Below, one piece after another: positions 1 to 54,964 of a stretch of 54,964 nucleotides of DNA. A program made the translations under genes and the position numbers. A model generated the notes under the pieces. That model ran no database searches, was not told the DNA's origin, and saw only the letters and a program-made list of their open reading frames with translations. The stretch is from a virus. How positions within the stretch are numbered: position 1 is the stretch's first letter; the number at the start of each line of letters is the position of its first letter. The stretch lies in IMG/VR virus record IMGVR_UViG_3300045988_176929. One strand, 5' to 3'.

Positions 1-119
1 ATAAACTTGCTCGTAAACAAATAATTAATAATAAGTAGAGGAAAGGTGTGAGGGATAATGAGCATATATGGCGAAAGCTTATTAACAAAAACATTTACAG
101 ATCATGTTTCAAAAAAAGC
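1..119. repeat. Terminal direct repeat, identical to 54846..54964 (circular assembly overlap)
   Basis: First 119 nt read identically to the last 119 nt. The repeat spans the RNase H stop codon (36-38) and the start of the next ORF, so it is not a biological terminus. Confidence 0.95.
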
Positions 120-441
120 ATATCTAAAAGCTTGTAAATGGTTAGCACAAAATGTGTTTAGTAAACCAGATTTGGCAAAATATATAACAGTTAAAATTGA
201 AAAAGTTGAAAATAAAAAACAAGAATCTGGATTTAGGATTTCCTTGTTTGTAGTGATTGATGAAAATGAAGTAAGAGAAAGTTATTGTAAAAAATGTAAA
301 AACTTACATACAATTCTTTACTCTGTTGATAAACCTAAATGTGATGAGTGTAAGTTAAATGCTTATAAGAAAAATATATTAGGTCAGATTGATGGTTTAT
401 TCGATTTTGTAAAGGAGGTAGTTGATGATGAAGAATATTAA
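58..441 (+). CDS. Hypothetical protein with zinc-ribbon-like Cys pairs
   Basis: 127-aa ORF with a purine-rich RBS upstream; CKKCK...CDECK motif. Confidence 0.6.
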   Translation: MSIYGESLLTKTFTDHVSKKAYLKACKWLAQNVFSKPDLAKYITVKIEKVENKKQESGFRISLFVVIDENEVRESYCKKCKNLHTILYSVDKPKCDECKLNAYKKNILGQIDGLFDFVKEVVDDEEY

Positions 442-802
442 GTTGTTCTTTGAAGTTTTGTTGAAAACATTAAAAGGATGCATACTTTCCATTGTGAAAA
501 GAATTGAACTTGTATGGAAATTATTTTTAATTGTTGTTCCTATAACTTTTGTTTATACTTATTATCAAGATTTTTGCTTATGCTTTGCAATATTTTTACT
601 TGATGTTGTTATTTTAACTTTAGATAAGGTAACAACAGGAATGAAGCAAACTGTAAATGGGTTTCCTATTTGTAAGAAAAGATTTACTCATAAATCAGAA
701 ACAAATAGTAAAGTAATATACATTAAAAATGAAGATATGTTACAAGCTCTTATGTATCTTTATGAGGTGGAGAATTATGCTGAAAGGAATGGTTTAAAAT
801 AA
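425..802 (+). CDS. Hypothetical membrane protein
   Basis: ATG 6 nt after AGGAGG (413-418); hydrophobic segments in the translation. Confidence 0.6.
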   Translation: MMKNIKLFFEVLLKTLKGCILSIVKRIELVWKLFLIVVPITFVYTYYQDFCLCFAIFLLDVVILTLDKVTTGMKQTVNGFPICKKRFTHKSETNSKVIYIKNEDMLQALMYLYEVENYAERNGLK

Positions 803-927
803 TGAAAGATATAAGGGATAAAGTTATAAAAGTATTATCTTGGGCTTTAATGTTATTAGGATTTATTATGCTTGCTGATTTAATGGTGTTTATCTTTTAT
901 GGTTCTTATTTATTATTTAATCATTAA
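802..927 (+). CDS. Small hydrophobic protein (41 aa)
   Basis: TAATG stop/start overlap with the upstream gene; one long hydrophobic span; below the ORF-track cutoff. Confidence 0.35.
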   Translation: MKDIRDKVIKVLSWALMLLGFIMLADLMVFIFYGSYLLFNH

Positions 928-939
928 TAGGAGTTTAAA

Positions 940-1578
940 ATGAAAAATAAAGATAGTTATTCATCACATAAGGAAGATTGGATATGGATTTCAATATTTA
1001 CAATTCTTACATTACTGTTAATATTTGTTATTTCTATTACTGTTAGAGAAGTTATAATAACAATTAAAACAGTTAGTGAAGTAAAAGAGGTAAAAATTGA
1101 ATGGATTAAAATGCCAGAAGTGGAACAAGAAAATGTTGAAGAAATTATAAAATATGATATTGTAGAAAAAGAGAAGCATTTGTGTGAAGCAAAATCCTCG
1201 AACTACAACTGTATCGGAAATCCTCGTACTACATTTTCAGATCAGGAAATCCTCGAACTACAACAAATAGCATTGGCAGAAGCGGAAGTGCAAGGAATAG
1301 GGGGCATGGCATTTGTAATGCAGGTGGTCCTTAATCGTGTCAATGATGAACGCTTTCCTGATACTATACATGATGTAATTAATCAACCAGGACAATTTTC
1401 TACTGTTAATGTGTATAAATCACTGGTCCCAACAGATAACAGTGAAAAGGCTATTGATTTATTAGAAGTATTAAATAATCAAGGAGCATTATACTTTGAA
1501 GTTAATACAAATGAATCCTGGCAGAGTACACACTTAACATACCTATTCTCATGTGATAATCATAATTTTTATATGTAG
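940..1578 (+). CDS. Membrane-anchored SleB/CwlJ-like cell wall hydrolase (Hydrolase_2 family)
   Basis: N-terminal TM helix; LAEAE...VVLNRVNDERFPDTIHDVINQPGQFS matches the SleB catalytic-domain signature. Confidence 0.8.
   Translation: MKNKDSYSSHKEDWIWISIFTILTLLLIFVISITVREVIITIKTVSEVKEVKIEWIKMPEVEQENVEEIIKYDIVEKEKHLCEAKSSNYNCIGNPRTTFSDQEILELQQIALAEAEVQGIGGMAFVMQVVLNRVNDERFPDTIHDVINQPGQFSTVNVYKSLVPTDNSEKAIDLLEVLNNQGALYFEVNTNESWQSTHLTYLFSCDNHNFYM
1189..1267 (+). repeat. Three direct copies of AAATCCTCG(A/T)ACTACA spaced about 27 nt apart inside the SleB-like ORF
   Basis: Copies begin near 1192, 1219 and 1247. They are translated in three different frames (KSSNYN, GNPRTT, EILELQ). Confidence 0.85.
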
Positions 1579-1582
1579 GAAT

Positions 1583-1612
1583 ACGCACACGTTTTTACGT
1601 GTGCGTTTTTTT
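1583..1612 (+). terminator. Rho-independent terminator
   Basis: 10-bp stem ACGCACACGT/ACGTGTGCGT, TTTT loop, then a T7 run. Confidence 0.85.
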
Positions 1613-1689
1613 ATATGTCATTAACGTTGTATTCGCTTCATATTCGCATTTTGTATCAATCAATGCATATTTTATATACCCGACATTTT

Positions 1690-1706
1690 GACCGCCTATA
1701 TGGCCC
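1690..1706 (+). promoter_or_regulatory. Copy of the intergenic motif family CCG(Y)CTRTATGRB (GACCGCCTATATGGCCC)
   Basis: Resembles motifs at 7873, 14142, 32393 and 48932. Confidence 0.4.
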
Positions 1707-1790
1707 TGATAGATGCCTTATTTAATATCTTTATATATATGTAATAAATACAAAAAGCAGATTTTTTTTGAAAAATATTTAAAAAAACTA

Positions 1791-1818
1791 TTGACTTTCT
1801 GCTTAAAGGTGGTATAAT
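1791..1818 (+). promoter_or_regulatory. Sigma-A-like promoter
   Basis: TTGACT, 16-nt spacer, TGgTATAAT extended -10. Confidence 0.6.
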
Positions 1819-1864
1819 TAAAGCATAAACAAACAAAACAAACAAAAATCTTTTTAGAAAGGAA

Positions 1865-2179
1865 ATGATGATTATGAAAAAGAATGAAATTATTAAATTT
1901 GGAAAAGAAGAATTTACATTATGTAAATATTTTAATCCCTATGTAAGGTGTATGGATTTATATGATGCATATATGAAGCCATCACAAATAAAGAAAAATA
2001 TTTGGGAATATTGGAGAAATTGGTTCCATGAAAATAAAGAAGGTTTTAATGATTTTATCGCAATTGGTTCATACAACTTCTGCCAATTCCAAGTTGTTGG
2101 AAGAATAACTGTTAAAGGAATTAAATATAACTTTTACATTAAGAAAAGTGGAAATGAAATTTGTTTAGTAAATGAATAA
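1865..2179 (+). CDS. Hypothetical protein
   Basis: 104-aa ORF downstream of a promoter, with AAAGGAAA RBS. Confidence 0.6.
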   Translation: MMIMKKNEIIKFGKEEFTLCKYFNPYVRCMDLYDAYMKPSQIKKNIWEYWRNWFHENKEGFNDFIAIGSYNFCQFQVVGRITVKGIKYNFYIKKSGNEICLVNE

Positions 2180-2204
2180 ATTTTAAAAAAACTAAATAAA
2201 ACTA

Positions 2205-2233
2205 TTGACAAACTAATTTAAACGTGGTACAAT
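2205..2233 (+). promoter_or_regulatory. Sigma-A-like promoter
   Basis: TTGACA, 17-nt spacer, TGgTACAAT. Confidence 0.65.
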
Positions 2234-2278
2234 AAAATCAACAAATAAAACAAAACCTAAATTAAGGAGGAAAATGTT

Positions 2279-2827
2279 ATGACTAACAAAACAGAATTAG
2301 TAAAGGTATTAAAGGAAAATGGGGCAACATGGAATAAGGAAGAAAAATCCTATCACATGAACGAATTATCTTTTAACAAAGTGATGGAAAACATTGAAGG
2401 AGTTGTTGCAATTAAATCAAAAACCGATAAAAATATGTACGGTTTAAAAATCAACAACATGGTTGTTACAAAGGTCATTACAGATGTTGTAGAAGTAAAT
2501 GAAACAACAGAACAAAAATCAACTGTTAAAAAGGAAGTTGAAGAAACAAAAAAACCTGTTAAAAAAGTTTCACGTGAAACATCGGAAACAAAAAAAGTTA
2601 AAAAGGAAAACGTTGAAGTTGGTAAGAATGGCCATAAGGCCAAAGGCTCCTCATACATTATTCTGTTAAAAAATAAGGATGATAAAAAGGAAACAAAGAA
2701 AACAGACTTGACAACGTGTGCAGAGGTAAAAGCATTTTTGAAAACAGTTTCAAAGAAACAACTTGAATATTTACGGATATATGATGAAAATAAAAATGAG
2801 GTTCGTAAAAGTGCATGGGTAGGTTGA
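2279..2827 (+). CDS. Lys/Glu-rich hypothetical protein
   Basis: 182-aa ORF with AAGGAGG RBS; carries one copy of the 14-bp palindrome. Confidence 0.65.
   Translation: MTNKTELVKVLKENGATWNKEEKSYHMNELSFNKVMENIEGVVAIKSKTDKNMYGLKINNMVVTKVITDVVEVNETTEQKSTVKKEVEETKKPVKKVSRETSETKKVKKENVEVGKNGHKAKGSSYIILLKNKDDKKETKKTDLTTCAEVKAFLKTVSKKQLEYLRIYDENKNEVRKSAWVG
2567..2580. promoter_or_regulatory. 14-bp perfect palindrome GTTTCACGTGAAAC, copy 1
   Basis: Exact self-complementary 14-mer. Confidence 0.9.
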
Positions 2828-2867
2828 TCCTACCCAGCACATAAAAATACCATTGGAGGTAAATGTT

Positions 2868-3077
2868 ATGAGTAAACAGAAATTAAGGGACTTTATTTCC
2901 GATTATAAACCACTCGTTCTAATATGTGTAAATGCTGATAATGCAGAGGAGAACGAAATAAAAGTAGAGCCACATATTTCAGAAATGCAGAAAAAGTATT
3001 TGGAATGTACAGAGTGGGATGCACAGCCATTTGGTTATGGTAAGTTATATGTTGAATGTTATTTTAGGGGGTTATAA
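2868..3077 (+). CDS. Hypothetical protein
   Basis: ATG after GGAGGT RBS; 69 aa. Confidence 0.55.
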   Translation: MSKQKLRDFISDYKPLVLICVNADNAEENEIKVEPHISEMQKKYLECTEWDAQPFGYGKLYVECYFRGL

Positions 3078-3078
3078 T

Positions 3079-3237
3079 ATGGGATGGGAATATATTTATA
3101 TTTTTAATTACTTTATTTTTATCAATAATTTTAACAATTTTGGTAGTTATGTGTACATAGTAAAAAAACTCGTACTTCTAACACTTAAAAATCCTCGTAC
3201 TTCTAACATTATGGAATTTTTGTGTGAAAAAATATAA
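3079..3237 (+). CDS. Doubtful small ORF overlapping repeat copies
   Basis: ATG after GGGGGT; contains two AAA(A/T)(C)CTCGTACTTCTAAC repeats, so it may be non-coding. Confidence 0.25.
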   Translation: MGWEYIYIFNYFIFINNFNNFGSYVYIVKKLVLLTLKNPRTSNIMEFLCEKI

Positions 3238-3280
3238 AACCCAACTTTTGACTATTATAAAATCCTCGTTATACAATTTA
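3163..3280 (+). repeat. Three more copies of the AAA(T)CCTCG(T)ACTTCTAAC-type motif
   Basis: AAAAACTCGTACTTCTAAC (3166), AAAATCCTCGTACTTCTAAC (3188), AAAATCCTCGTTATACAAT (3259). Confidence 0.8.
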
Positions 3281-3338
3281 CAATTATTGTAAAATTGTTA
3301 AATTGAGAAATTTGCATGAAATTAATAAAAAGCAAAAT

Positions 3339-3352
3339 GTTTCACGTGAAAC
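3339..3352. promoter_or_regulatory. 14-bp palindrome GTTTCACGTGAAAC, copy 2 (18-bp ATGTTTCACGTGAAACAT)
   Basis: Exact. Confidence 0.9.
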
Positions 3353-3715
3353 ATAAAATAGGGAAAGTTTTAATTATAACAGAATTATTAATTTCATTAT
3401 TTAAACATAAATGTTATTAAACAAAAATATAGTTTATAATTTTTGTGTTTAATAATTATAATAAATATATAATATTATATAAATAATAATATGTGTAATA
3501 TATAAGGAATGTATGTGTATATAATATATGTGTTTTTTATGTGTGTTTATATATTATTTATTGTGATTATTAAATGCAAAAATTTTTAAAATTTAAAATA
3601 ACAACAATTATGAAATGAAAAAATTAAATAACATATGAAATAAATAATATTTGTTATTTTTATTACAAAATTAAATTTCAACAATTATTTAATTATTTTT
3701 TATGCATTTTTAACA

Positions 3716-3743
3716 TTGTGTTTTTTAAAATATTTGATATAAT
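3716..3743 (+). promoter_or_regulatory. Candidate sigma-A promoter for the island genes
   Basis: TTGTGT, 16-nt spacer, TGaTATAAT. Confidence 0.45.
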
Positions 3744-3807
3744 TGCATCGTAACAATAAATCATATGAATGTTTCGCAAATACATTTAAAAAAATTGCAT
3801 AAATGTT

Positions 3808-4431
3808 ATGTATTCATTTGAAAAACGATATTATAATGATGAAAAATTACGTTTAATTGATGCATCGCAATTGAATAATGAAAATGACGAATATATTGTA
3901 TTATTTCAACGTGACGCATTACAAAATTTTATTGATTGTTATTGCAAATTTTATTTTACAATGAATGATGCATATGATGATTATATTAAATCATTTAAAA
4001 TAATGTGTAATGTGTTTGACAAACAAATTGTTATTAATGAATTTGAAAAAATATTTTCAAAATATGACGAAGATGTAAAAATAATTAATTGCATGTATTT
4101 TGATTATTTGAATACGGGTGATTATGCATTGTTTTTTGTTGTATATGAAAAACAAATGATTAATGAAATTAATACATTTGTTGATATTTATGAAATTGAT
4201 TATGATTTTTATGATTATGAAGAAGGTGATGAATTTCATTTTAAAATTAATGATTATGCATCATATTTGTTTTTCAATAAATATAATGCAATGCAATTTT
4301 TATTTGATTATAATAATGATTATGAAAAAATTGAAATTAAATCATCATATTATCACAATTTGTCAAAATATATAAATAATCATAATAAATATGTTTCAAA
4401 ATTTGAAAATGTTTCACGTGAAACATATTAA
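3808..4431 (+). CDS. Island paralog 1: acidic N/D/Y/F/I/K-rich protein with no Pro or Trp
   Basis: A 207-aa ORF in about 15% GC DNA is highly non-random; shares two blocks with paralog 2; no SD. Confidence 0.75.
   Translation: MYSFEKRYYNDEKLRLIDASQLNNENDEYIVLFQRDALQNFIDCYCKFYFTMNDAYDDYIKSFKIMCNVFDKQIVINEFEKIFSKYDEDVKIINCMYFDYLNTGDYALFFVVYEKQMINEINTFVDIYEIDYDFYDYEEGDEFHFKINDYASYLFFNKYNAMQFLFDYNNDYEKIEIKSSYYHNLSKYINNHNKYVSKFENVSRETY
4261..4319 (+). repeat. 59-bp perfect direct repeat, copy A
   Basis: Identical to 4992..5050; encodes SYLFFNKYNAMQFLFDYNN. Confidence 0.9.
4411..4424. promoter_or_regulatory. 14-bp palindrome, copy 3
   Basis: Exact; overlaps the last codons of paralog 1. Confidence 0.9.
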
Positions 4432-4493
4432 TAACAAAATTAACAATGATTGTAACGTGAATGCAAACGTTTAATAAAAATGCATAAAATAAT

Positions 4494-5078
4494 ATGTATC
4501 ATTTTATTGATGAAAATAATTGTTATGATAAAATTAAAATTGTTGACGAAAACGAAAAAATTGATGAAATGTTTTGTAACAAAACGAATGAACAAATTGT
4601 AATTTTTAATTTTGATGCATTACAACAATTTATTGATTGTTTTTATGAAAACGAATTTCAAAAATTTTTTGATTGTGATAAAAATGATTTCATTATTGAA
4701 TTTAATGATTTTAATTTTAAATTTTGTAAAAAAATGAAAAATTATGATAAAAAACGAATCGAAAAAAAATTTTACAAAATAAAATCAATATATGATGATT
4801 GTAACGTGATTAAATGTGTATTTTTTAACAATTGTTGTCATATATCATCATATTTACATTTGCATATAATTTATTGTAAAAATGATGATAAAAATATTTT
4901 TATTGATGATTATATAATAATGTATAACGTCGATAAATTTAAAATTAAACATGATGCAAAACGAACATTCAATTCACAAAATGATGCATTATCATATTTG
5001 TTTTTCAATAAATATAATGCAATGCAATTTTTATTTGATTATAATAATGAAATTGATAAAAAACAAATTTTATATTGA
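4494..5078 (+). CDS. Island paralog 2 (no Gly, Pro or Trp)
   Basis: 194-aa ORF; DALQQFIDCFY and SYLFFNKYNAMQFLFDYNN blocks shared with paralog 1. Confidence 0.75.
   Translation: MYHFIDENNCYDKIKIVDENEKIDEMFCNKTNEQIVIFNFDALQQFIDCFYENEFQKFFDCDKNDFIIEFNDFNFKFCKKMKNYDKKRIEKKFYKIKSIYDDCNVIKCVFFNNCCHISSYLHLHIIYCKNDDKNIFIDDYIIMYNVDKFKIKHDAKRTFNSQNDALSYLFFNKYNAMQFLFDYNNEIDKKQILY
4992..5050 (+). repeat. 59-bp perfect direct repeat, copy B
   Basis: Identical to 4261..4319. Confidence 0.9.
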
Positions 5079-5163
5079 TGATTTTGATTTTTCGATTGAT
5101 TATGACACATATAAAACAATTTTCGCATGATTCACAATTCATGTAAAACAATTGTAAAATGTT

Positions 5164-5496
5164 ATGTTTGAAATGAATAATAAAAATGTAATTGTAACAC
5201 GTTATAATGATGAAATGAAACAATATTTTAAAAACATTGTTGATGATATTTATTGTGATGATGTATCATATAATACAATGTGCAACGAAAATATTGATGC
5301 ATTTTTTAAAAATAATGCATATATGCATTATGAATATACATTAATTAAAAATGATGATATTTTACATATTATTGTTTTTAATAACAATGAATTTAAAATT
5401 GTTTCATATAAAATAAATGATGATTTTGAATTTATACGTTTTAATGTTTCATATGTTTATAATGTATATGATTTATTTTCAATAATTTTTAATTAA
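5164..5496 (+). CDS. Island paralog 3 (no Gly, Pro or Trp)
   Basis: 110-aa ORF preceded by TTGTAAAATGTT directly abutting the ATG. Confidence 0.65.
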   Translation: MFEMNNKNVIVTRYNDEMKQYFKNIVDDIYCDDVSYNTMCNENIDAFFKNNAYMHYEYTLIKNDDILHIIVFNNNEFKIVSYKINDDFEFIRFNVSYVYNVYDLFSIIFN

Positions 5497-5499
5497 TAT

Positions 5500-5513
5500 G
5501 TTTCACGTGAAAC
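5500..5513. promoter_or_regulatory. 14-bp palindrome, copy 4
   Basis: Exact; 4 nt after the stop of paralog 3. Confidence 0.9.
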
Positions 5514-5568
5514 AATGTAACAAATAATAATGTTGTGTGTTCGCAAATCACAAAAATTGCAAAATATT

Positions 5569-5986
5569 ATGAAAATTAATTATGTTGTAAAAAAATTTGA
5601 ATGTATCGAAATTTACAAAAATATTGATGATTTTTTTTAAAATGCAATTTGAATGTTTATTTGATGATATTAATTGTATTTTTAATTTATCATATGATAT
5701 TAAACAAATAAAATTATCATATTGTAAAATGAAATGCGAATTGAAAAAAAATAATATTAAAAATTATGTTATTATTTGTGATTTTGAACATGAAAAATTT
5801 TATTTGATTGACAAACAAAATGACAATTTTATAACAAATAATATAACAAATAAAATGTATCAATTTAATTTTGATTTTGAAAATGTCGAAAATAATAAAT
5901 TATATGAAATTGACGATACATCAAAATTAAATATTGCAATGTATTATTTATATGAAATTTGTCATTGTAATGATGAACAAATATAA
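5569..5986 (+). CDS. Island paralog 4, interrupted by a +1 frame change in a T8 run (5631-5638)
   Basis: The ATG at 5569 has the family start motif TTGCAAAATATT but stops at 5638-5640. The long ORF (5597..5986) lies in the next frame. One T fewer would fuse them. Confidence 0.5.
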
Positions 5987-6051
5987 TTTTTAAAAATGTA
6001 AACAAAATATTAATTGTCAACAATTGCACGTTGTAAAATTGCATAAATATC

Positions 6052-6414
6052 ATGTTGAATAAAAAAATTATTGAAAAATTCAAAAATTTTGAAAATGATG
6101 TGAACGATTATGATTTATTTGAATTTTACACATTTGATGAATTTTTGAAAATATTTGAAAATGTTAATGATGAATATAAAATTTCATATTATGAAAAAAC
6201 ACAAAAATTGATAAATGAATATCATTGTAATAATGACAATACAATCGTATTATTGTATAATTGCGATGATGACGAATATTTAATAATCAATTTTGAAAAT
6301 GATAATTTGATTATTACGCAAAATATTGAAATTGAATATACAAATGATGATTTATGCAAAAATGCATTATATGAAATTTTACAATATATGTTTACAAATG
6401 AATATTATGATTGA
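6052..6414 (+). CDS. Island paralog 5 (no Gly, Pro or Trp)
   Basis: 120-aa ORF preceded by TTGCATAAATATC directly before the ATG. Confidence 0.65.
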   Translation: MLNKKIIEKFKNFENDVNDYDLFEFYTFDEFLKIFENVNDEYKISYYEKTQKLINEYHCNNDNTIVLLYNCDDDEYLIINFENDNLIITQNIEIEYTNDDLCKNALYEILQYMFTNEYYD

Positions 6415-6524
6415 TTGTTAACGAAAACAATTAAAAAAATTCGTATTACAAAATGATATTTTCAATATTTGTGTTTTTTGCATTTTACATTATTTTGTTT
6501 TATTTATTTGATTAATTAAATGAA

Positions 6525-6654
6525 TGTGATTTTTACACAAAAATTCGATTTACGAAAAAATCGTAATAAAACAAAATTCATTATACGTGTAAAAAATTCG
6601 ATATACACAATAAATATAAAATCGTCGTTTTACAAATTATGTGTAAAAATCACA
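6525..6654. repeat. 15-bp inverted repeat pair TGTGATTTTTACACA / TGTGTAAAAATCACA
   Basis: 6525-6539 and 6640-6654 are exact reverse complements. Confidence 0.85.
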
Positions 6655-6734
6655 TTTCATCGTAATACACATTATGTAAAAAATAACGTATAATTAAAAA
6701 TGCGAAATATTAAAAAATACGTGTAAAATAAAAA

Positions 6735-6797
6735 TTTACATACAATGTAAAAAATTAATGTGTAAAAAATTACATTAAAAAATACATTGTATGTAAA
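6735..6797. repeat. Nested hairpin: 15-bp inverted repeat TTTACATACAATGTA / TACATTGTATGTAAA with an inner TTAATGT/ACATTAA pair
   Basis: 6735-6749 and 6783-6797 are exact reverse complements. Confidence 0.85.
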
Positions 6798-7033
6798 ATA
6801 ATGTGTATAATAAATCATATGATAATTAATTAAATATATGTAATGATAATTACAATGTACATATTAATTGATATGATAAAACAATTATGAATACAAAACA
6901 TAATGAATTATTTATAACAACATTTGAATGTAATAATTATAATTACAAAACAACATTATAAATTATTGATTACAAATTACATTGTCAACGTCATTAAAAT
7001 AATTATTTTTATATTCGTATATATGCGTAAATT

Positions 7034-7047
7034 GTTTCACGTGAAAC
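7034..7047. promoter_or_regulatory. 14-bp palindrome, copy 5, flanked by direct repeats TATTCGTATATATGC
   Basis: Exact. Confidence 0.9.
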
Positions 7048-7167
7048 ATTGCAAAATAATTTATTCGTATATATGCATATAATAACAATTGTTTTTAAAA
7101 TCATGTGTTATTATCATGCAATTAAATAACAACATATATCATTGTTTATTTTTGTGCAATTTTTATA

Positions 7168-7195
7168 TTGCAATTATTTGTGTATGCGTTATAAT
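7168..7195 (+). promoter_or_regulatory. Candidate sigma-A promoter for paralog 6
   Basis: TTGCAA, 16-nt spacer, TATAAT. Confidence 0.45.
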
Positions 7196-7262
7196 GTAAT
7201 TACAAAATAAATAATGATTGTGTGATTCGACACAACACACGTTAATCAAATGTCAAAATGTT

Positions 7263-7553
7263 ATGATAAACAATAATATAAATGTACAAACAAAATATTT
7301 CATTACAAAAAATGATATTTACAAATTATGTGTTGAAAATGATTTTTGTACATGTTGCGACAATGAACAGTATGACGAATTATTATCATCAAATTTATTG
7401 TATGTATGTAATAATATTGATGATTTAAAACGACATTTATTAATTGTTGCAAATGATATATATAAATATTCGTGTGATACAAATATTGAAAATATATTAT
7501 ATTTATTATTTAATAAATGTGTACATACATTATTTAAAATAAATAATAAATAA
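7263..7553 (+). CDS. Island paralog 6 (no Gly, Pro or Trp)
   Basis: ATG preceded by TGTCAAAATGTT as in the other paralogs. The ORF-track start at 7218 is a TTG further upstream. Confidence 0.6.
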   Translation: MINNNINVQTKYFITKNDIYKLCVENDFCTCCDNEQYDELLSSNLLYVCNNIDDLKRHLLIVANDIYKYSCDTNIENILYLLFNKCVHTLFKINNK

Positions 7554-7584
7554 TTAAATATTTACAATTAAATAAATGTAAATT

Positions 7585-7615
7585 ATGCACGTTGAAAAAT
7601 AACGTGCATTTTTTA
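7585..7615 (+). terminator. Rho-independent terminator closing the island
   Basis: ATGCACGTT / AACGTGCAT stem, 7-nt loop, then a T6 run. Confidence 0.85.
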
Positions 7616-7670
7616 TGTTTAATTAAATAACAAATGTTATTATAACAAATGTAATTTAATCATTTTAAAA

Positions 7671-7684
7671 ATAACGATCGTTAT
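7671..7684. repeat. 14-bp perfect palindrome ATAACGATCGTTAT at the island's right boundary
   Basis: Exact; 7 nt before the first GG at 7691. Confidence 0.85.
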
Positions 7685-7851
7685 AATAACGGGTGGTTTG
7701 TTTTGTTGTGTCATTTTGAAAATAGACCGTCTAACTCCTAGAAATCCTACTTTCATATATATATAAGGCCCTCAGCTCCATTCGAGGATATGCCTGAGGA
7801 TGCGTAGGAGCCTCAAATAGACGTCTGAATGATGATCGTTGCCTATTTATT

Positions 7852-7903
7852 CATGTTCGTTTGCAACGTTCCTGTATGAGGCAAATACGACGTTGCAACA
7901 TGA
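7852..7903 (+). promoter_or_regulatory. Hairpin with conserved loop TGTATGAGGCAAATACG in the terS leader
   Basis: Stem TTGCAACGT (7861-7869) / ACGTTGCAA (7890-7898), plus outer CATGT/ACATG. Confidence 0.6.
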
Positions 7904-8030
7904 CATAAAAAATGCAAAAATAAAGCCAAAAACTAAAAAGTGAGAAAAGTGTTATAAAAATATTTCTCTAGCAGAAATTGAAAGCCTATAAGGCCCCACG
8001 TTATTACATAAAGGAAGGAGGATTAAATAA

Positions 8031-8642
8031 GTGGGAAAGGTAAATGAAAGTAAAGTTGATTATTGGTTAACTGATGATGGTTTAATTCTTGTTGAAGCAT
8101 GGGCAAGGGATGGTTACCTGTTGGATGACATTGCACAAAGGATGGGAATTGAACGACAAACATTATATACCTGGCGTAAGAAGTATCCTGAAATTGCACG
8201 AGCATTAAACACTGGGAAAGAACTTATTGATTACAAGGTAGAGAATGCATTATTAAAAGCAGCATTAGGTTATACCACAAAGGAAATTAAAGTAACATTA
8301 GGTAAGAAGATGTTAAATGGTGAAGTGTATGAAGTATTAAAAGAAACCACCACCCGGGAAATTGCCCCGAATGTTACTGCTTGTATGGCATGGTTGAATA
8401 ACAGAAAGCATGACCAGTGGAAACGTAACAGGGATAAGGTGTTAGAAATGGATGAAGAAGATTCCAACATCAATATCACCATTGTACGTGGTAATCCAAA
8501 GCAGGATAATTTAGGTGATAATGTAAATCAGGAAGTTAAATTTGAACCGAAGAAAGAGGAGCAGGTTGAAGTAAATTCCGCTGATGAAAATGATCCTGAT
8601 TATTGGCCCGATGATTGGGAGGATGAAGATGAGGATAATTAA
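8031..8642 (+). CDS. terS: Terminase small subunit
   Basis: GTG start 8 nt after AAGGAAGGAGGA; N-terminal HTH (DDIAQRMGIERQTLYTWRKKY); acidic tail; sits immediately upstream of terL. Confidence 0.75.
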   Translation: MGKVNESKVDYWLTDDGLILVEAWARDGYLLDDIAQRMGIERQTLYTWRKKYPEIARALNTGKELIDYKVENALLKAALGYTTKEIKVTLGKKMLNGEVYEVLKETTTREIAPNVTACMAWLNNRKHDQWKRNRDKVLEMDEEDSNINITIVRGNPKQDNLGDNVNQEVKFEPKKEEQVEVNSADENDPDYWPDDWEDEDEDN

Positions 8643-8757
8643 GGAGTTCATAAATTACATTTTATGTCTTCTGATTTTCTGTTTTATTATTATCATTGCA
8701 ATATTTACATTTCCACTTTGGAATATGTTTGAAAATGATAGTTAATTTTTTTACCTA

Positions 8758-8786
8758 TTTACTTTTTATTTATTATGTGTTATAAT
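8758..8786 (+). promoter_or_regulatory. Candidate promoter in the terS-terL gap
   Basis: TTTACT, 17-nt spacer, TGtTATAAT. Confidence 0.4.
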
Positions 8787-8882
8787 ATAAAATATATTAA
8801 TAATATATAATATAAATATTATTTATAATATTATCCACTTTTTACATGGTAGTGGATTTTTAATGTAAAAGAGGTAAAATAA

Positions 8883-10229
8883 ATGGCAAAAGCAACAATG
8901 AATATAAGTCCTGCTTTTGACAATTTTATTTTTGATTGGGATTATGAAACATACTTAGTAATTGGTTCTTATGGTAGTGGTAAATCACATGGTATTGTAC
9001 AAAAGATAATTTTAAAATGTTTTGAGGAAAAAAGAAAAGTGTGTGTATTCCGTGATGTTTATGATACACATAAGGAATCTACATTTGACTTATTAAAACA
9101 AGTTTTGGAAGATATGGGTTTACTTGCTGATAATGGTGTGAGAAAACATCCATTTAAAGTATGTTTCAAAAATTCACCTTTGGAGTTTAAATTTCCAAAT
9201 GGTTCGAGAATAATTTTCAAAGGTATGGATAGTACTGAAAAGTTAAAATCCTTAAATGGTGTTTCTATTGTATGGATAGAAGAATGTTCAGAAGTATCAT
9301 ATGATGCTTACTTGGAATTGTTAGGTCGTATTAGAACGCCAAATAAAACAATGCACTTTATTTTAAGTTGCAATCCTGTTGGTAAGTTTAACTGGGTTTA
9401 TCAACAGTTCTTTGAAAAAATAAATGAAGATGGTACAACAAATGTTATTCTACGTGATGAGGTTTTATATGAAAGAAAGACCTTAGTAAAAAATGGGGTT
9501 TATTATCACCATTCGACTTGTGATGATAATCCATTTTTGCCTCCTGAATATATAAAACGTCTTGATGATTTAAAAACATATGATAAATCTTTATGGGTTG
9601 TTGCACGTCTTGGTAGATTTGGTGCAACAGGTATGCGTGTATTACCTCAGTTTGAAGTAATGAATACAAAAATGGTTAATCACTTTGTTAGTGAACTTGA
9701 TCCTAAATGGCATCGTGTTGGTATGGACTTTGGATTTGAAACTTCATACAATGCGGTTATTAAGGTTGCTATTGACGATAAGAATAAGTGGTTGTATATT
9801 TATAAAGAATATTACAAAAATAAAATGACTGATGATAAAACAGCTGTTGAACTTGTTAATTGGGATAGTGAAATTAAGGATCAAAGAATTAAAGCTGATA
9901 ATGCTGAACCAAAAACAATTCGTTATTTTAGAAACCAAGGTTTTCAAATGTTTCCTTGTCAAAAGAAATGTGATAAAAAATCTGAGGGTAGTAGAATTGC
10001 AAATACAAGAAAGTGTAAACGTTTCCGAAGAATTATTTGTTCCTCCGATTGTATAAATACAATTAAGGAGTTAAAGGATCTTACTTATAAAAAGAATAAG
10101 GATGGAACAATTAATTATAGTAAATTCAATATTGACCCTCATACATTTTCTGCTATATGGTATGCAATTGATGATTATAATGTAGCTGATTTAAAGGAAC
10201 GTAAAAACAATAGTATTAGAGGTAAATAA
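8883..10229 (+). CDS. terL: Terminase large subunit (PBSX/terminase_3-like)
   Basis: Walker A GSYGSGKSHG; 448 aa; C-terminal nuclease-like region. Confidence 0.9.
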   Translation: MAKATMNISPAFDNFIFDWDYETYLVIGSYGSGKSHGIVQKIILKCFEEKRKVCVFRDVYDTHKESTFDLLKQVLEDMGLLADNGVRKHPFKVCFKNSPLEFKFPNGSRIIFKGMDSTEKLKSLNGVSIVWIEECSEVSYDAYLELLGRIRTPNKTMHFILSCNPVGKFNWVYQQFFEKINEDGTTNVILRDEVLYERKTLVKNGVYYHHSTCDDNPFLPPEYIKRLDDLKTYDKSLWVVARLGRFGATGMRVLPQFEVMNTKMVNHFVSELDPKWHRVGMDFGFETSYNAVIKVAIDDKNKWLYIYKEYYKNKMTDDKTAVELVNWDSEIKDQRIKADNAEPKTIRYFRNQGFQMFPCQKKCDKKSEGSRIANTRKCKRFRRIICSSDCINTIKELKDLTYKKNKDGTINYSKFNIDPHTFSAIWYAIDDYNVADLKERKNNSIRGK

Positions 10230-16484: not shown

Positions 16485-17525
16485 ATGGCAAGTATTTTTG
16501 GATTGGTTACATCTGAAAACATTGTTTCTTATTGGAATACAATGAATATGAATGAAACCGAAAATTTACTGGGTGAAGAGTTATGGCCCGATGAACAGAA
16601 GTTAGGCTTAGACCTTAAGTTTATCAAGGGTGCTTCCGGGTTACCGGTTGTATTAAAACCTTCTGCTTACGATGTTGTTGCATTAAAGAGAGACCGTATC
16701 GGATTTGAAAAGGTTGCAACTGAAATGCCGTTCTTCAAAGAGTCTACAATGATTGATGAAGAAATGAGACAGCAGTTAAATATGGTTCTTGAAACTGGAA
16801 ACCAGGCATACATTGATGCTATTCTTACAAGAGTATTTGATGATGAAATGACACTGCTTCGTGGTGCAAGAGCACAGCGTGAGAGAATGAGAATGTCTCT
16901 TTTAACAACTGGTGGTATTTCAATTTCTGCAAATGGCCAGGACTATGATTATGATTATGGCCTTAAAGATTATCAGAATGTAACTGTTAAAAAAGCATGG
17001 AGTGATCCTACTGCAGATATTATTACTGATATTGGGGAATGGATCCAGGATATTGTGGATCATACCGGGGTAAGACCTGAACGTGCTGTCCTTACTTCTA
17101 CAACATGGAAGTATTTCCGTAACAATAATCTTATCAGAAATGCAATTTGGGGAAATTACTCTGTTGCTCCTGTTTCTGCTGAAAAAGTATTATCTTATGT
17201 TGAAGATACCTTAAAGTTAAAGATTGCAAGATATGATAAAAAGTTCATTGATGAACAGGGTGCTATTAAGAATTATGTACCGGATGATTTGTTTGTACTT
17301 ATTCCTCCTGGAACACTTGGTAAAGGATGGTTTGGTACAACTCCTGAACAGTCTGATCTCATGTCAGGTGCTGCTGCAAATGTAGTTATTACTGATACCG
17401 GTGTTGCTGTTACAACTGTTAAGAAGACAGATCCTGTTAATGTTGATACAAAGGTTTCCATGATTTTCCTTCCTTCCTTCGAAGCAATGGATAATATTCT
17501 TATTGCTGATGTAAAAGGGGAATAA
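16485..17525 (+). CDS. Major capsid protein (capsid protein E-like)
   Basis: 346 aa, position and composition; strong AGGAGG RBS. Confidence 0.8.
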   Translation: MASIFGLVTSENIVSYWNTMNMNETENLLGEELWPDEQKLGLDLKFIKGASGLPVVLKPSAYDVVALKRDRIGFEKVATEMPFFKESTMIDEEMRQQLNMVLETGNQAYIDAILTRVFDDEMTLLRGARAQRERMRMSLLTTGGISISANGQDYDYDYGLKDYQNVTVKKAWSDPTADIITDIGEWIQDIVDHTGVRPERAVLTSTTWKYFRNNNLIRNAIWGNYSVAPVSAEKVLSYVEDTLKLKIARYDKKFIDEQGAIKNYVPDDLFVLIPPGTLGKGWFGTTPEQSDLMSGAAANVVITDTGVAVTTVKKTDPVNVDTKVSMIFLPSFEAMDNILIADVKGE

Positions 17526-32714: not shown

Positions 32715-32785
32715 AGGTATATAGCTTAGTGGTAGAAGCAAACAATTTAATTGTTAAGTCACAGGTTCGATTCCTGTTATATCTA
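32715..32785 (+). tRNA. tRNA with a short anticodon arm; best 7-nt loop reading gives anticodon UUA (ochre-suppressor-like)
   Basis: Acceptor AGGTATA/TATATCT; D arm GCTT-AGTGGTAG-AAGC; T arm ACAGG-TTCGATT-CCTGT. The anticodon arm AACAA-TTTAA-TTGTT folds as 5 bp with a 5-nt loop, or 4 bp with loop ATTTAAT. Confidence 0.75.
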
Positions 32786-35959: not shown

Positions 35960-36013
35960 ACAAATTGGGGAGACATAGTTCTTCCCATTTGAATTTTATT
36001 GGAGGTTGAAGAA

Positions 36014-36520
36014 ATGAAGAAAAACATTGTAGTGTTTGGTTGTGATAATACAGGCAAGACTACACTTGCACAAAAGATTGCTTTTAAATTAGGAAGTCAA
36101 TATGTAAAAAGTTTAGGACCTAATAGAACAAAGAATGAACAGTTAGATTTCATGTTTGAAAATTTAAACTCTGACGGTATAAAGGTATTTGATCGTTTCC
36201 CGATAATTGAGGAGAGTACAAGTGGTGTTGTTTTAAGAGGCCATGATAATTTCCAAACGTGGCGTGAGCAGGAAATGGATTTGCTTAGCAAAGTTGATGT
36301 TTTTATTTTCTGTAATCCTGGTTTATTTAACACATTAAATTGGGGTGAACGGGAACAACTTGTAGGTGTAAAAGATCATGCACTGGAGTTAATCAATAAG
36401 TATAATGAAATTGCAGTTCTTTTGCAGCAGTATCATCATAATGTAATTGAGTATAATTATATAATTGATCCTATTGGAAATTTTTTTATTAGTGATTTAA
36501 AAGTTAAATTGGGGGTATAA
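36014..36520 (+). CDS. P-loop NTPase (deoxynucleotide kinase-like)
   Basis: VFGCDNTGKTTLAQ Walker A; about 170 aa; ATG after GGAGG. Confidence 0.45.
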   Translation: MKKNIVVFGCDNTGKTTLAQKIAFKLGSQYVKSLGPNRTKNEQLDFMFENLNSDGIKVFDRFPIIEESTSGVVLRGHDNFQTWREQEMDLLSKVDVFIFCNPGLFNTLNWGEREQLVGVKDHALELINKYNEIAVLLQQYHHNVIEYNYIIDPIGNFFISDLKVKLGV

Positions 36521-36524
36521 CGGA

Positions 36525-37169
36525 ATGAATATTACTCATGCGGTTGAAGAAAAAATTGAAGGTGACAAGTTAGAAGCAATATTTGAAAGACAAAAAAGTT
36601 TAATGTTTAAGTACCATGATATTGAAAAGAAAAGTGGTTTACTACAAACAGAAGATTGTCCTGTTAATCTTGATGATAAAAGAGGCCAGGCAAGAATTAA
36701 GGATTTCTCATGGAGGGTAATGGAAGAAGTTGGGGAAGCACTTGATGCAAGAGAAGATGGGGACCGGGAACATTTTTGTGAAGAATTGATTGATGGTTTA
36801 CATTTTCTTACTGAATTAACAATTCTTGCAGGATATGAACCGAAAGATATTTGTTGGGAAGAACCGAATCAGATGGATATGCTTGATTACATGGTTATGA
36901 ATGTTGAGGATGTTATGGAGTGTATTAATATTAGCAATTATGTTGCAAACTTAGTAATGGATTTGGGTATGATGTGTAACTGCTTGAAGAATAAACCATG
37001 GAAGCAGACAAACATGATTACCGATAAGGAACATTTCCACAATAAACTTTGTTGTGTTTGGAATGATTACATTCATCTTTTAAGTACAGAAATGAACGCA
37101 AATGAAATTGCAATGGTTTACTTAAAGAAGTCACAGGTAAATAAGTTTAGACAGAGGTCGGGATATTGA
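36525..37169 (+). CDS. All-alpha NTP pyrophosphohydrolase (MazG / dimeric dUTPase-like)
   Basis: EEVGEALDA and EELIDGLHFL acidic helices, plus NKPWKQ. Confidence 0.5.
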   Translation: MNITHAVEEKIEGDKLEAIFERQKSLMFKYHDIEKKSGLLQTEDCPVNLDDKRGQARIKDFSWRVMEEVGEALDAREDGDREHFCEELIDGLHFLTELTILAGYEPKDICWEEPNQMDMLDYMVMNVEDVMECINISNYVANLVMDLGMMCNCLKNKPWKQTNMITDKEHFHNKLCCVWNDYIHLLSTEMNANEIAMVYLKKSQVNKFRQRSGY

Positions 37170-37930
37170 AGGTAAGGAAGTATAAAGATTTTGATGAAAT
37201 GTTTTTAAAACTTAATCAGGAAATAGTAACTAATCCTTGGGAAATGTTAGATTACTCTAACGGTATATTAGGTTACATGGATAATGTTTTTATTGCTTGT
37301 AAGAATTGGAATTGTAATTTAGATTTAGGTAAGTTTGGTTATAAAAAGAACAAATGGCCACACTTGCTTAAAACATATATTAATTATGATGAGTTACTTA
37401 AATTCCATGAAAGACTTGCAACAGCTTCTGGTTTAAGTTTGACATTTTATTTTAATCAAAAGAAAATTAACAATGGATCTTGCTTGTTAGAAATTGTTTT
37501 GTCAAGAAAGGATAGAACAAAGAAGTGGGATAAATGTAATGTTATTTACAGAACAACAGAAACACAAAGAAGAATGGCTGCTGATCTTTGTTTAATAAAT
37601 AGTTTTATAAGGGAGTTACCTGAATGTTGTGAAATTGAAAGGGTTACATTTTATATGGCTCAATCATATATTTCTGCAATGGTTATAAATGGTTACTTTG
37701 ACTATTTTGGGGTTGATATGAGTACCCTTGATAAAACACATCCTTGGATAAAGAATTTGGTTAATCAACATGACCACAATTTTGTTCCTGGGGCAAGAAT
37801 TACAACTTATCAATCAATGGCAAAGATGCAAAAGTTAGCATTAGGAATGGATGATTGTCCACCAATGTTGTGTAAGGATTTATCAATAAAAGAATTTTTT
37901 GAAAGTAGAATTAAGAAGGGAGCAAAATAA
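37166..37930 (+). CDS. Divergent thymidylate-synthase-fold protein lacking the canonical H..Y end motif
   Basis: GSCLLEIVL...CNVIYRTTETQRR...LINSFI...RVTFYMAQSYI aligns in order with the TS core PC..QF / QRS.D / N / H.Y. Confidence 0.4.
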   Translation: MKVRKYKDFDEMFLKLNQEIVTNPWEMLDYSNGILGYMDNVFIACKNWNCNLDLGKFGYKKNKWPHLLKTYINYDELLKFHERLATASGLSLTFYFNQKKINNGSCLLEIVLSRKDRTKKWDKCNVIYRTTETQRRMAADLCLINSFIRELPECCEIERVTFYMAQSYISAMVINGYFDYFGVDMSTLDKTHPWIKNLVNQHDHNFVPGARITTYQSMAKMQKLALGMDDCPPMLCKDLSIKEFFESRIKKGAK

Positions 37931-38656
37931 ATGAGAATCTATATGAACTGGGCGGAAGCATACGAGGAGATTAAAAGGGATCTTGCTGAAATGGGTATTC
38001 TTGTAAAACCTAAAACGATGCAGGATAAGGTTGTAGAAGGAAACCCTGATTATGAAACAATGGAGTTGCAGAATTATTGCTATACAATTCTTAATGCAAA
38101 ATCCAAAGATATTACTGGGGTAATTCAACCTTGGGCTGATGCAGAATTTATGGAAAGAATTTGCAATCCGTTTGCATCAAAAGAATTTACAGGCTGTCTT
38201 GATAAACCCGAATTTATTAATCCTGGGGAAGCATGGAAGTTAAGAAAAGATGTCTGGACTGAGTATATGCATGATGGTAAAATGGCTTATACTTACAATG
38301 AAAGAATCTGGCGTAATGAACAGCTTACAAAAATTATTGAAAGATTAAAGCAGGACCATGATTCAAGACAGTTATGGTTGAGTATCTGGGATCCTAATGA
38401 GGATGTTGATAAGCTAGGTGGTGTTTCCCGTGTTCCTTGTTCATTAGGTTATAATTTCCAATTCAGGGATGGTAAACTTAACATTCACTATGTTATGCGT
38501 AGCTGTGATTTCAATACACACTTTATTAATGATGTGTACTTAGGAATTAAACTTTTGGAATATGTTGCTGATAAATGTGGAATGGAAGTAGGTAATTTCA
38601 CCCATACAATGTTCTCCTTGCACGTTTATAAAAAAGACGTTGCAAATGTGTTTTAA
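37931..38656 (+). CDS. Thymidylate synthase-like pyrimidine C5 transferase (ThyA family, C-terminally short)
   Basis: DSRQLWLSIWDP...VPCSLGYNFQFRDGKLNIHYVMRSCDFNTHFINDVY...FSLHVY parallels ThyA DSRR..WN..PCH..QF..QRSCD..PFN..THLY. Confidence 0.7.
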   Translation: MRIYMNWAEAYEEIKRDLAEMGILVKPKTMQDKVVEGNPDYETMELQNYCYTILNAKSKDITGVIQPWADAEFMERICNPFASKEFTGCLDKPEFINPGEAWKLRKDVWTEYMHDGKMAYTYNERIWRNEQLTKIIERLKQDHDSRQLWLSIWDPNEDVDKLGGVSRVPCSLGYNFQFRDGKLNIHYVMRSCDFNTHFINDVYLGIKLLEYVADKCGMEVGNFTHTMFSLHVYKKDVANVF

Positions 38657-44476: not shown

Positions 44477-44669
44477 AAGATATTCTATATATAATGTTGC
44501 ACCAACTAATTTTTCAGCTATTTTTATAGAGTGTAAGCCACAACAAATATGGGGATATGTAAAGTTTGAGGATAAGGTAGATTTGATTAGGGACAATGTT
44601 AGTATGTATATTTCAATATCTGATTTTGAAGAAAATTGGGAGGTTATTGATGATGGAAAGAATGAGTAA
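44436..44669 (+). CDS. Hypothetical protein
   Basis: In-frame ATG within ORF 44385..44669. Confidence 0.4.
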   Translation: MSMRRVVKTKCRIKRYSIYNVAPTNFSAIFIECKPQQIWGYVKFEDKVDLIRDNVSMYISISDFEENWEVIDDGKNE

Positions 44670-45138
44670 GAAGGATTATTATTTAGGTATTGCATTAGCT
44701 GTTTCAAAACGATCCCCATGTTTAAGAAGACGTTATGGTTGTATCATTGTAAAGAATGATGAGATAATTGCAACTGGGTATAATGGATCCCCTAGAGGTG
44801 AGTTAAATTGTTGTGATTGCTATGAGGAATGTCCAAGAAAAGATAAGCCACATAATTCTGGGGATTATTCAGATTGCACATCAGTTCATGCTGAACAAAA
44901 TGCTATGTTATCAGCTGCAAGGAAAGATATGATTGGTGCAACAATGTATTTGGTAGCAGAAGAGGTTTATTTCAATCTTAAGGAGGTTCATTTATGGGGT
45001 AAACTTAAGGGTATAAAACCATGCCCTATTTGTGAACGTATGATAAAGAATGCAGGAATAGAAAGAATAATAACAGTAGAAGGAATTATTTGGAAAAAAA
45101 GAAATCTTGAAAAGGTGGTTAAAAATGGTTGGTTATAA
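44650..45138 (+). CDS. dCMP deaminase (ComEB-like)
   Basis: ATG after GGGAGG; VHAEQNA and PCPICERMI zinc motifs. Confidence 0.85.
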   Translation: MMERMSKKDYYLGIALAVSKRSPCLRRRYGCIIVKNDEIIATGYNGSPRGELNCCDCYEECPRKDKPHNSGDYSDCTSVHAEQNAMLSAARKDMIGATMYLVAEEVYFNLKEVHLWGKLKGIKPCPICERMIKNAGIERIITVEGIIWKKRNLEKVVKNGWL

Positions 45139-54391: not shown

Positions 54392-54883
54392 ATGAAAGTA
54401 AAGATATATACAGATGGTGCCTGTTCTGGTAATCCTGGGCCAGGAGGATGGGGCGGGATAATTAATTATCCAGGATTAAGTAAAAAGATATCAGGATTTA
54501 TGAAGAATACAACAAATAACCAAATGGAGTTACTAGCTGTTATTTCCTCGTTAGAAAAATTCTCTGATGATCTTATTCTTGAAAATGTTAAGGATTGTGA
54601 TTTCACAAAGATAGATCAAGTAGAAGTTATATCTGATAGTGCTTATGTTGTAAATGCTTTTAATCAGAAATGGTTTAAAACATGGGTTGTAAATGATTTT
54701 AAAACAAAGGATGGGAATGATGTTAAAAATAAGGAGTTATGGTTAAAGTTACTTTATCATTTAGATGTATTAGATTTCCTTGGTATTAGAGTTTCTTTTA
54801 TAAAAGTAAAAGGACATAATGGGGATCACTTTAATGAACTTGCTGATAAACTTGCTCGTAAACAAATAATTAATAATAAGTAG
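54392..54883 (+). CDS. rnhA: Ribonuclease HI
   Basis: IYTDGACSGNPGPGGWGGII...NNQMELLAVI...ISDSAYV...VKGHNGDHFNELADKLA. Confidence 0.9.
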   Translation: MKVKIYTDGACSGNPGPGGWGGIINYPGLSKKISGFMKNTTNNQMELLAVISSLEKFSDDLILENVKDCDFTKIDQVEVISDSAYVVNAFNQKWFKTWVVNDFKTKDGNDVKNKELWLKLLYHLDVLDFLGIRVSFIKVKGHNGDHFNELADKLARKQIINNK

Positions 54884-54964
54884 AGGAAAGGTGTGAGGGA
54901 TAATGAGCATATATGGCGAAAGCTTATTAACAAAAACATTTACAGATCATGTTTCAAAAAAAGC
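54846..54964. repeat. Second copy of the 119-bp terminal overlap
   Basis: Identical to 1..119. Confidence 0.95.

Follow-up and report, generated by a model that had tools for sequence, protein, structure and literature searches.

What is a perfect palindrome doing five times within a few kilobases of a virus genome, in and around a block of small genes of aberrant base composition? We addressed this question in IMG/VR virus record IMGVR_UViG_3300045988_176929, a stretch of 54,964 nucleotides that we call the window, and conclude that the repeat is, by its sequence, the canonical chromosomal-type parS centromere, tGTTTCACGTGAAACa, the site at which ParB/Spo0J is loaded onto DNA. The 14-mer GTTTCACGTGAAAC is present in five exact copies, starting at 2567, 3339, 4411, 5500 and 7034, and no further match with up to two mismatches exists on either strand of the 54,964 bases, in agreement with the first-pass annotation of this DNA, which had counted five exact copies and noticed none elsewhere. 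Dinucleotide-preserving shuffles contained 0.14 matches on average against the five found, with none of 100 shuffles reaching five, and the clustering of all copies within 4.5 kb is far above chance expectation. Extended by one base at either end, four copies read as the perfect 16-mer TGTTTCACGTGAAACA, while the first is AGTTTCACGTGAAACA and agrees with it at 15 of 16 positions; over 18 bases (ATGTTTCACGTGAAACAT), two sites are perfect and three match at 17 positions. Outside these 16-18 bases, the only feature common to the five copies is A/T-richness. The sites, together with the open reading frame (ORF) and the island that hold them, are as follows.

2566..2581: parS copy 1, AGTTTCACGTGAAACA (15/16), in the lysine-rich linker of ORF 2279..2827, where it encodes ...KVSRET...

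3338..3353: parS copy 2, perfect TGTTTCACGTGAAACA, on the left margin of the island depleted in AG/CT/GG/CC

4410..4425: parS copy 3, perfect, overlapping the final codons of island gene 3808..4431 (...VSRETY-stop)

5499..5514: parS copy 4, perfect, the 16-mer beginning 3 nt past the stop of island gene 5164..5496

7033..7048: parS copy 5, perfect, in a long non-coding stretch ahead of the last island gene

2279..2827, + strand: ORF of family F3, of unknown function, with parS copy 1 in a variable linker

3401..7690, + strand: island, GC content 17.6%, with six small genes; parS copies 3-5 lie inside and copy 2 at its left edge

The positions relative to ORFs had been described correctly from the start: inside 2279..2827, at the end of 3808..4431, with the 14-mer 4 nt after 5164..5496, and before a promoter. 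ORF 2279..2827 has no Pfam or PHROG match, and 70 nt separate copy 3 from the next start codon. Copy 5 is flanked by direct repeats of ATTCGTATATATGC at 7012-7026 and 7061-7075, and the non-coding block that holds these repeats and copy 5 is 95% conserved among relatives.

The assignment to parS draws on several published descriptions of the site. The sequence given for Bacillus subtilis parS is TGTTNCACGTGAAACA, with the same core in Caulobacter, Hyphomonas and Burkholderia (PMC7022226, Table 1), and TGTTTCACGTGAAACA is the parS consensus of Firmicutes and many further phyla (PMC7022226). With the latter, parS was mapped in twelve gut bacteria, Lachnospiraceae among them, and ParABS homologs were present in every one (PMC10197239); the DNA crystallised with bound ParB is GATGTTTCACGTGAAACATC, in which exactly the present 14-mer is underlined as parS (PMC7383237). 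Tested as a 16-bp inverted repeat against TGTTNCACGTGAAACA, four copies match at 16 of 16 positions and one at 15 of 16. The Noc-binding site (NBS), TATTTCCCGGGAAATA (PMC7383237), was ruled out as a candidate, with a core of CACGTG here versus CCCGGG in the NBS. The first-pass annotation had proposed a symmetric site for a dimeric DNA-binding protein, and the kind of site was right, namely a published parS/ParB site; its further suggestion, an operator for a phage helix-turn-helix (HTH) protein, did not hold.

Consistent with this identity, the site is widespread among viruses. A scan of IMG/VR for the 18-mer ATGTTTCACGTGAAACAT matched at least 120 unrelated contigs, with GC contents of 27-70% among the matches listed, against 0 contigs for the control palindrome ATGTTACTCGAGTAACAT of identical base composition. 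Among the 120 matches listed, 45 have two or more copies, a ParB-like motif was found in one and a ParA motif in none (in the fetched flanks only), and 128 of the 204 sites lie outside ORFs of at least 100 aa. Three multi-copy AT-rich loci (L111, L058 and L087) belong to phi29-like podoviruses, which encode a protein-primed polymerase, Gp16 and a capsid protein of the phi29 type. In GenBank, BLAST with a 32-nt query containing copy 3 found 1,198 places in 419 phage records, led by Listeria, Clostridium, Bacillus and Microbacterium phages and also including Lactobacillus phages. Base-by-base verification covers two of these phages: Clostridium perfringens phage phiZP2 (L221), with six sites (5202, 8229, 8254, 10328, 12203 and 12228), and Clostridium sporogenes phage CS01 (L212), with two (5544 and 17332), all of them intergenic and unannotated in the records. 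The match to the published parS consensus and the presence in unrelated viral contigs together mean that the palindrome is not a private phage motif. Moreover, in the literature searched we found no paper describing parS in phages beyond the work on phi29 and Nf, and the numbers above suggest that borrowing of host ParB is far commoner among phages than the textbook phi29 case.

This distribution bears directly on the idea that the palindrome is the operator of a phage-encoded dimeric regulator controlling early or island transcription units. A perfect palindrome would suit such a regulator, a promoter-like site at 7168-7195 follows copy 5 at a distance of about 120 nt, and all copies fall in a block bracketed by two terminators:

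1583..1606, + strand: intrinsic-terminator-like hairpin, left limit of the ~6-kb block that holds all five parS sites

7585..7609, + strand: intrinsic-terminator-like hairpin at the right island end, conserved in the relatives L123 and L141

However, the sequence is not phage-specific, most copies stand at gene 3' ends instead of over -35/-10 elements, and there are relatives that have the same HTH gene set region but no sites. We therefore regard an operator as highly improbable. Even less probable is an element acting in RNA, a 3'-end hairpin that would terminate, stabilise or direct the processing of island transcripts. Copies do occur right behind stop codons, and a stem of 6-7 bp with an ACGU loop is possible; the first-pass description of the palindrome as having no loop and no T tract was thus not strictly right in its first half, because the central ACGT is able to form a 4-nt loop, while a T tract is indeed absent at all copies. 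Nevertheless, the hairpins are weak (-4.7 to -6.5 kcal/mol), no copy has a U tract and a terminator scan calls none, as the same description of poor intrinsic terminators had anticipated. Only one of the five folds better than all its shuffles (z = -3.4), the other four being indistinguishable from shuffles, one copy lies within a coding region, and an arbitrary hairpin need not equal the parS 16-mer in seven genomes. Terminator and phage-specific operator are thus both rejected as readings of the palindrome.

If the sites are centromeres, which protein would read them? Pfam/PHROGs scans of the window ORFs revealed no ParA, ParB or integrase and likewise no other site-specific recombinase, and a motif search of the window found neither a ParA Walker-A nor a ParB GERR motif. 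With no ParBc or ParA/CbiA hit among the ORFs scanned, the phage does not encode a self-contained ParABS system; a lysogeny module was not found either, and all genes lie on one strand. A host-type centromere without a cognate phage ParA or ParB makes host ParB the most likely partner. We therefore favour the reading that the five sites probably form a ParB nucleation cluster, recognised by host ParB/Spo0J, through which the phage genome would be actively partitioned. Reasoning from established ParB biology, host ParB dimers would bind each of the five sites, form closed, CTP-dependent clamps and spread into the adjoining early-gene block; to ParA/Soj and SMC of the host, the phage DNA would then resemble chromosome near the origin. 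What the phage would probably gain is partition of its genome to daughter cells in a carrier state without an integration module; alternatively, if the host sporulates, the destination could be the forespore, as shown for phi29. Weak hints of such a host come from two phage proteins, a SleB-type hydrolase and an HTH protein with a faint likeness to SpoIIID, and from related contigs that were binned with metagenome-assembled genomes of Lachnospiraceae and Bacilli.

The closest known system is phi29, which has five parS sites and whose genome is segregated into the prespore with the involvement of Spo0J (PMC2731898). In NC_011048 (phi29, L220), we located four TGTTTCACGTGGAACA copies (1 mismatch), at 10445, 15903, 17243 and 18760, and a fifth site with 3 mismatches; the site at 17243-17258 begins 1 nt past the gp16 stop codon. 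Like phi29 (and Nf), the phage described here has host-type parS, five per genome, with sites at gene boundaries and no ParA, ParB or integrase, so that one feature of the phi29 strategy, host-type parS in a genome without integration or partition genes, is present. In contrast, phi29 is a 19-kb protein-primed podovirus with dispersed sites, whereas here a 55-kb siphovirus with a PolIII-alpha module carries them in a 4.5-kb early block, as perfect palindromes instead of TGTTTCACGTGGAACA, without the enrichment of Spo0A boxes that is coupled with parS in phi29, and as mosaic joints within a compositionally aberrant island. The phage thus most likely borrows host ParB as phi29 does, which on the sequence evidence would be a known trick in a new phage. 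The phi29 half-site GGAACA, set against the perfect palindrome in Clostridium phages, may be a sign that sites in phages follow the consensus of their hosts.

Similar comparisons can be drawn with other centromeres. In Firmicutes and other bacteria, chromosomal parABS clusters at the origin have the identical 16-bp site in similar number and clustering, with 1-10 parS per genome in gut bacteria (PMC10197239) and 10 in B. subtilis (PMC7022226). Unlike these clusters, the sites here are virus-borne and adjoin neither parAB genes nor the origin of a cellular replicon. The plasmid-prophages P1 and N15 and partitioning mycobacteriophages bring genes for ParA and ParB with them, together with private parS sequences. 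The present sites resemble P1/N15-type ParABS cassettes as a presumed centromere for extrachromosomal maintenance of a phage genome but differ in that neither ParA nor ParB is encoded and the host consensus is used. phiZP2, CS01 and the phi29-like contigs also have perfect TGTTTCACGTGAAACA copies, theirs in intergenic gaps of lytic-type Firmicute phages, yet they belong to unrelated families, have no compositional island, and their records report no function for the sites.

Are the sites maintained in relatives of this phage? Among GenBank phages, neither 2200-8000 (BLAST in distant mode) nor 8000-30000 (near mode) had a match. The first IMG/VR relatives, found through the terminase large subunit (TerL), were uninformative on most copies because most of their contigs end inside the AT-rich island, leaving only copy 5 to be checked. 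A metagenome scan anchored on the terminase small subunit gene (terS) yielded 65 loci, in which close relatives again stop inside the island; an IMG/VR scan for the conserved junction pattern upstream of terS returned only three contigs, all already known, and island paralog 1 as an IMG/VR query had no match. Homologs of the island protein 6052..6414 led to seven contigs of 52-58 kb with complete islands (L213-L219). Six of the seven (L213, L215, L216, L217, L218 and L219) carry 3-5 sites. The first-pass annotation had made its interpretation depend on conservation of the sites in related phages, and this conservation is what these six genomes display.

The sites in relatives occupy equivalent places: the linker of the ORF 2279 family, the left island border, the stops of island genes and the region upstream of the last island gene. 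Copies behind the stop codons of island genes of differing families lie about 55-70 nt ahead of the next start. A counterpart of the in-gene copy 1 is present in L215, L216, L217 and L218, while the linker segment that hosts it is missing from the ORF 2279 homologs of L123 and L124. Copy 2 has an orthologue in L213, L215, L216, L217 and L218; the junction class of copy 3 is common to the window and L216_8380; and the upstream module of copy 4 occurs with decayed copies in L213 (2 mismatches), L215 (2) and L218 (1). Copy 5 is kept in the strain variants L121, L147 and L148 and in L213, L215 and L218, with one transition each in L216 and L217. Across the 30 sites of the window and six relatives, the span conserved between different flanks is exactly the 16-mer; position -1 is T in 25 of the 30, the remaining five, all of them the in-gene copy, having A, and position +15 is A in all 30. 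The seven decayed copies contain eight substitutions, all transitions. The short islands of L123 and L214 have neither parS nor any other repeated palindrome. What is maintained, therefore, is a set of several good sites, 3-5 per genome, with turnover.

Several of these observations weigh against active partition by host ParB. The close relatives L123 and L214 manage without parS, the flanks at two aligned orthologous junctions are 87-95% identical and thus as conserved as the site itself, and copy 5 is point-mutated in two of six genomes; the comparison thus speaks for the upkeep of 3-5 copies per genome and not for purifying selection on any one site. Some weak support for partition, on the other hand, comes from a tyrosine-recombinase gene that is found in the parS-less L123, L214 and L142 and is absent from the parS-bearing window, L213, L218 and L219, a complementarity of integrase and parS that rests on about one lineage each. 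This gene is split into two ORFs between endolysin and portal (L214 19111-20135, L123 16210-17232, L142 8400-9422). As to differences from phi29, which pairs parS with Spo0A boxes (TGTCGAA) at early promoters to hold back the lytic cycle, such boxes are not enriched here, with 2 in 55 kb versus 2.7 expected, one of them at 7226-7232 just downstream of the promoter-like site. In addition, the genome encodes a thymidylate-synthase homolog, a dCMP deaminase and dUTPase_2, and recognition by ParB could suffer if the DNA is base-modified. Phages with modified pyrimidines typically have such a set of nucleotide genes. Finally, parS also occurs in phages of non-sporulating hosts (Listeria, Lactobacillus and Microbacterium), so entrapment in spores is not a general pay-off.

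The last point agrees with the main rival explanation, in which the sites act as a sponge: many replicating phage genomes with five sites each would titrate host Spo0J/ParB off the host origin, which would derepress Soj/ParA and benefit the phage by interfering with DnaA control, the segregation of the chromosome or the onset of sporulation. Titration shares the sequence evidence of the partition reading, and a clustered multi-copy layout without phage ParAB agrees with it just as well. However, phi29, the sole studied case, indicates segregation and not titration, and the tolerance of decayed copies argues against strong selection for maximum copy number. We thus consider a ParB sponge unlikely and retain partition by host ParB as the preferred reading.

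Beyond their presumed role as centromeres, the parS sites also mark, by the alignments, the joints at which island cassettes reassort. In twelve aligned site-containing junctions, the parS core is the sole invariant segment; the upstream flanks form several classes and so do the downstream flanks, but the two classifications are discordant. For example, the 3' end of island-gene family F7 is followed by one downstream module in L217 and by a different one in L218, and one downstream module is found behind three different upstream modules. The gene order between sites varies among relatives as well. The 16-18 bp site is the only sequence common to otherwise unrelated cassettes and thereby coincides with the cross-over points of reassortment. 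These cross-overs map about 10-25 nt from the parS core at no fixed position. Not every conserved copy is such a joint: the one within ORF 2279 and the one at the left border of the island are exceptions.

Could the palindrome then be a dedicated recombination site, a target like an integron attC at which a recombinase inserts, excises or shuffles island genes? The placement of copies directly behind the stops of families F1, F2 and F7, the differing gene order and the reassorting flank classes would all be expected of such a site. Against it, the window ORFs contain no integrase or site-specific recombinase, the tyrosine recombinase of the relatives is limited to parS-less ones, and the islands of the site-less L123 and L214 are still cassette-like. 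Moreover, the sequence is identical to the universal parS and in unrelated phages occupies ordinary intergenic gaps, two conserved copies stand away from cassette joints as described above, and variable cross-overs off the core are expected of RecA-type homologous exchange. The lack of a site-specific recombinase, the position of the cross-overs and the presence of a phage RecA homolog together point to homology-driven exchange, not a dedicated site, which we hold to be very unlikely. The earlier suggestion of a cassette-boundary site therefore stands as a description of position, since modules reassort around the copies, and has little in its favour as regards a role in recombination, the window ORFs scanned containing no site-specific recombinase.

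A stranger feature than the parS sites is the island in which most of them lie. Its 4,290 nt contain 10 AG/GG and zero CT/CC dinucleotides, against a normal level of about 28 forbidden steps per 200 bp, and the longest run free of exceptions is 3,144 nt. The rule acts at the dinucleotide level, as island trinucleotides fit a first-order model, and it excludes Shine-Dalgarno sequences and Gly, Pro and Trp codons. An equivalent island lies directly upstream of terS in L123 (7348-8936), L141 (1-795), L147-L150 and L213-L219. The rule is kept in every close relative, with 0-17 exceptions per island and a GC content of about 17-21%, and is partial in the more distant relatives L124 and L143. Across relatives it is symmetric on both strands; a strand asymmetry that the window alone suggested failed in the relatives. 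Restriction avoidance is unsupported as the cause, with only GATC and CATG mildly low among the allowed 4-mer palindromes. As the first-pass annotation observed, the palindrome uses only island-allowed steps; the parS 16-mer contains no forbidden step, but a random 16-mer has about a 7% chance of the same, and about 7% of 16-mers outside the island also comply. No link of the dinucleotide rule to ParB could be made.

The genes of the island and their leaders are located as follows.

3808-4431, 4494-5078, 5164-5496, 5597-5986, 6052-6414 and 7263-7553: island ORFs

3760-3810, 4440-4496, 5100-5166, 5525-5571, 6010-6054 and 7205-7265: island-gene leaders

In place of a Shine-Dalgarno sequence, the leaders end in ATTGCAwAAAtnTT-ATG, usually after a TGATTGT..CG..GATTGCAAAC-like element, and the same leaders recur in relatives, where they reassort with the genes. 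Acidic in character, the island proteins have a high content of N, D, E, Y and F; they lack Pro and Trp and contain just two Gly, both in the first protein. Pfam/PHROGs searches of these proteins gave no significant family, and an AlphaFold2 model of ORF 6052..6414 (pLDDT 84) had no Foldseek match in PDB or BFVD. The island gene starting MKINY... (5569-5986) appears frameshifted at a T8 run (~5632-5640) by comparison with the intact homolog of L123 (7649-8053).

It is tempting to join the two features into one adaptive module, in which the parS sites and the island constitute a protected centromere and host-takeover cassette array of a non-integrating phage. Early DNA stripped of two of the ten base-pair steps, and with them of Shine-Dalgarno sequences and Gly, Pro and Trp codons, would be invisible to some dinucleotide-specific activity of host or phage that acts on DNA. 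Candidates would be a nuclease, deaminase or primase, or base modification that depends on sequence context and is due to the phage nucleotide-modification genes. The stretch would stay 'host-like', readable by host RNA polymerase and ParB from entry on. We put this forward as a doubtful proposal, one that we credit slightly less than the sponge.

The remaining genome is that of a tailed phage. An exact 119-bp terminal overlap (1-119 = 54846-54964) marks the window as a complete genome of ~54.8 kb, assembled as a circle. The terminase genes follow the island directly and provide its positional context:

8031..8642, + strand: terminase small subunit

8883..10229, + strand: terminase large subunit

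Beyond both terminase subunits, Pfam/PHROGs assignments include an HK97-type major capsid protein and siphovirus tail proteins, a GH25/M15 endolysin and the SleB-type hydrolase, and, for DNA transactions, a DnaG-like primase, PolIII alpha, RecA, RuvC-like and Cas4-like nucleases and RNase H, besides the weakly matching SpoIIID-like HTH protein. Genes of nucleotide metabolism, namely a P-loop kinase-like protein, dUTPase_2 and the thymidylate-synthase homolog, lie in 35999-38656 together with an unknown 254-aa protein, and the dCMP deaminase in 44596-45138. A tRNA called by ARAGORN at 32715-32785 (+ strand) has the anticodon TTA, which would read the UAA stop, and may be a suppressor tRNA. Repeats of AAATCCTCG(A/T)ACT(A/T)C occur at 1192-1264 in the SleB-like ORF, at 3161-3277 just left of the island, and in L123 at 6945-7010. 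Rfam had no match in 1-9000.

What had been an anonymous repeat becomes a host-virus interaction open to test: a phage, probably of a gut Firmicute, in which no lysogeny or partition genes were found bears a full-strength host-type centromere. Two points appear to go beyond the phi29 precedent, that parS is common in phages and that here it coincides with cassette joints. The sites mark exchange points of accessory early genes and so offer a handle on the mosaic evolution of the region. If host ParB does act on them, this would have a bearing on the persistence of 'lytic' phages in gut bacteria that form spores, be it inside spores or in carrier states, and would be relevant to the safety of phage therapy and to the reading of parS hits in metagenomes.

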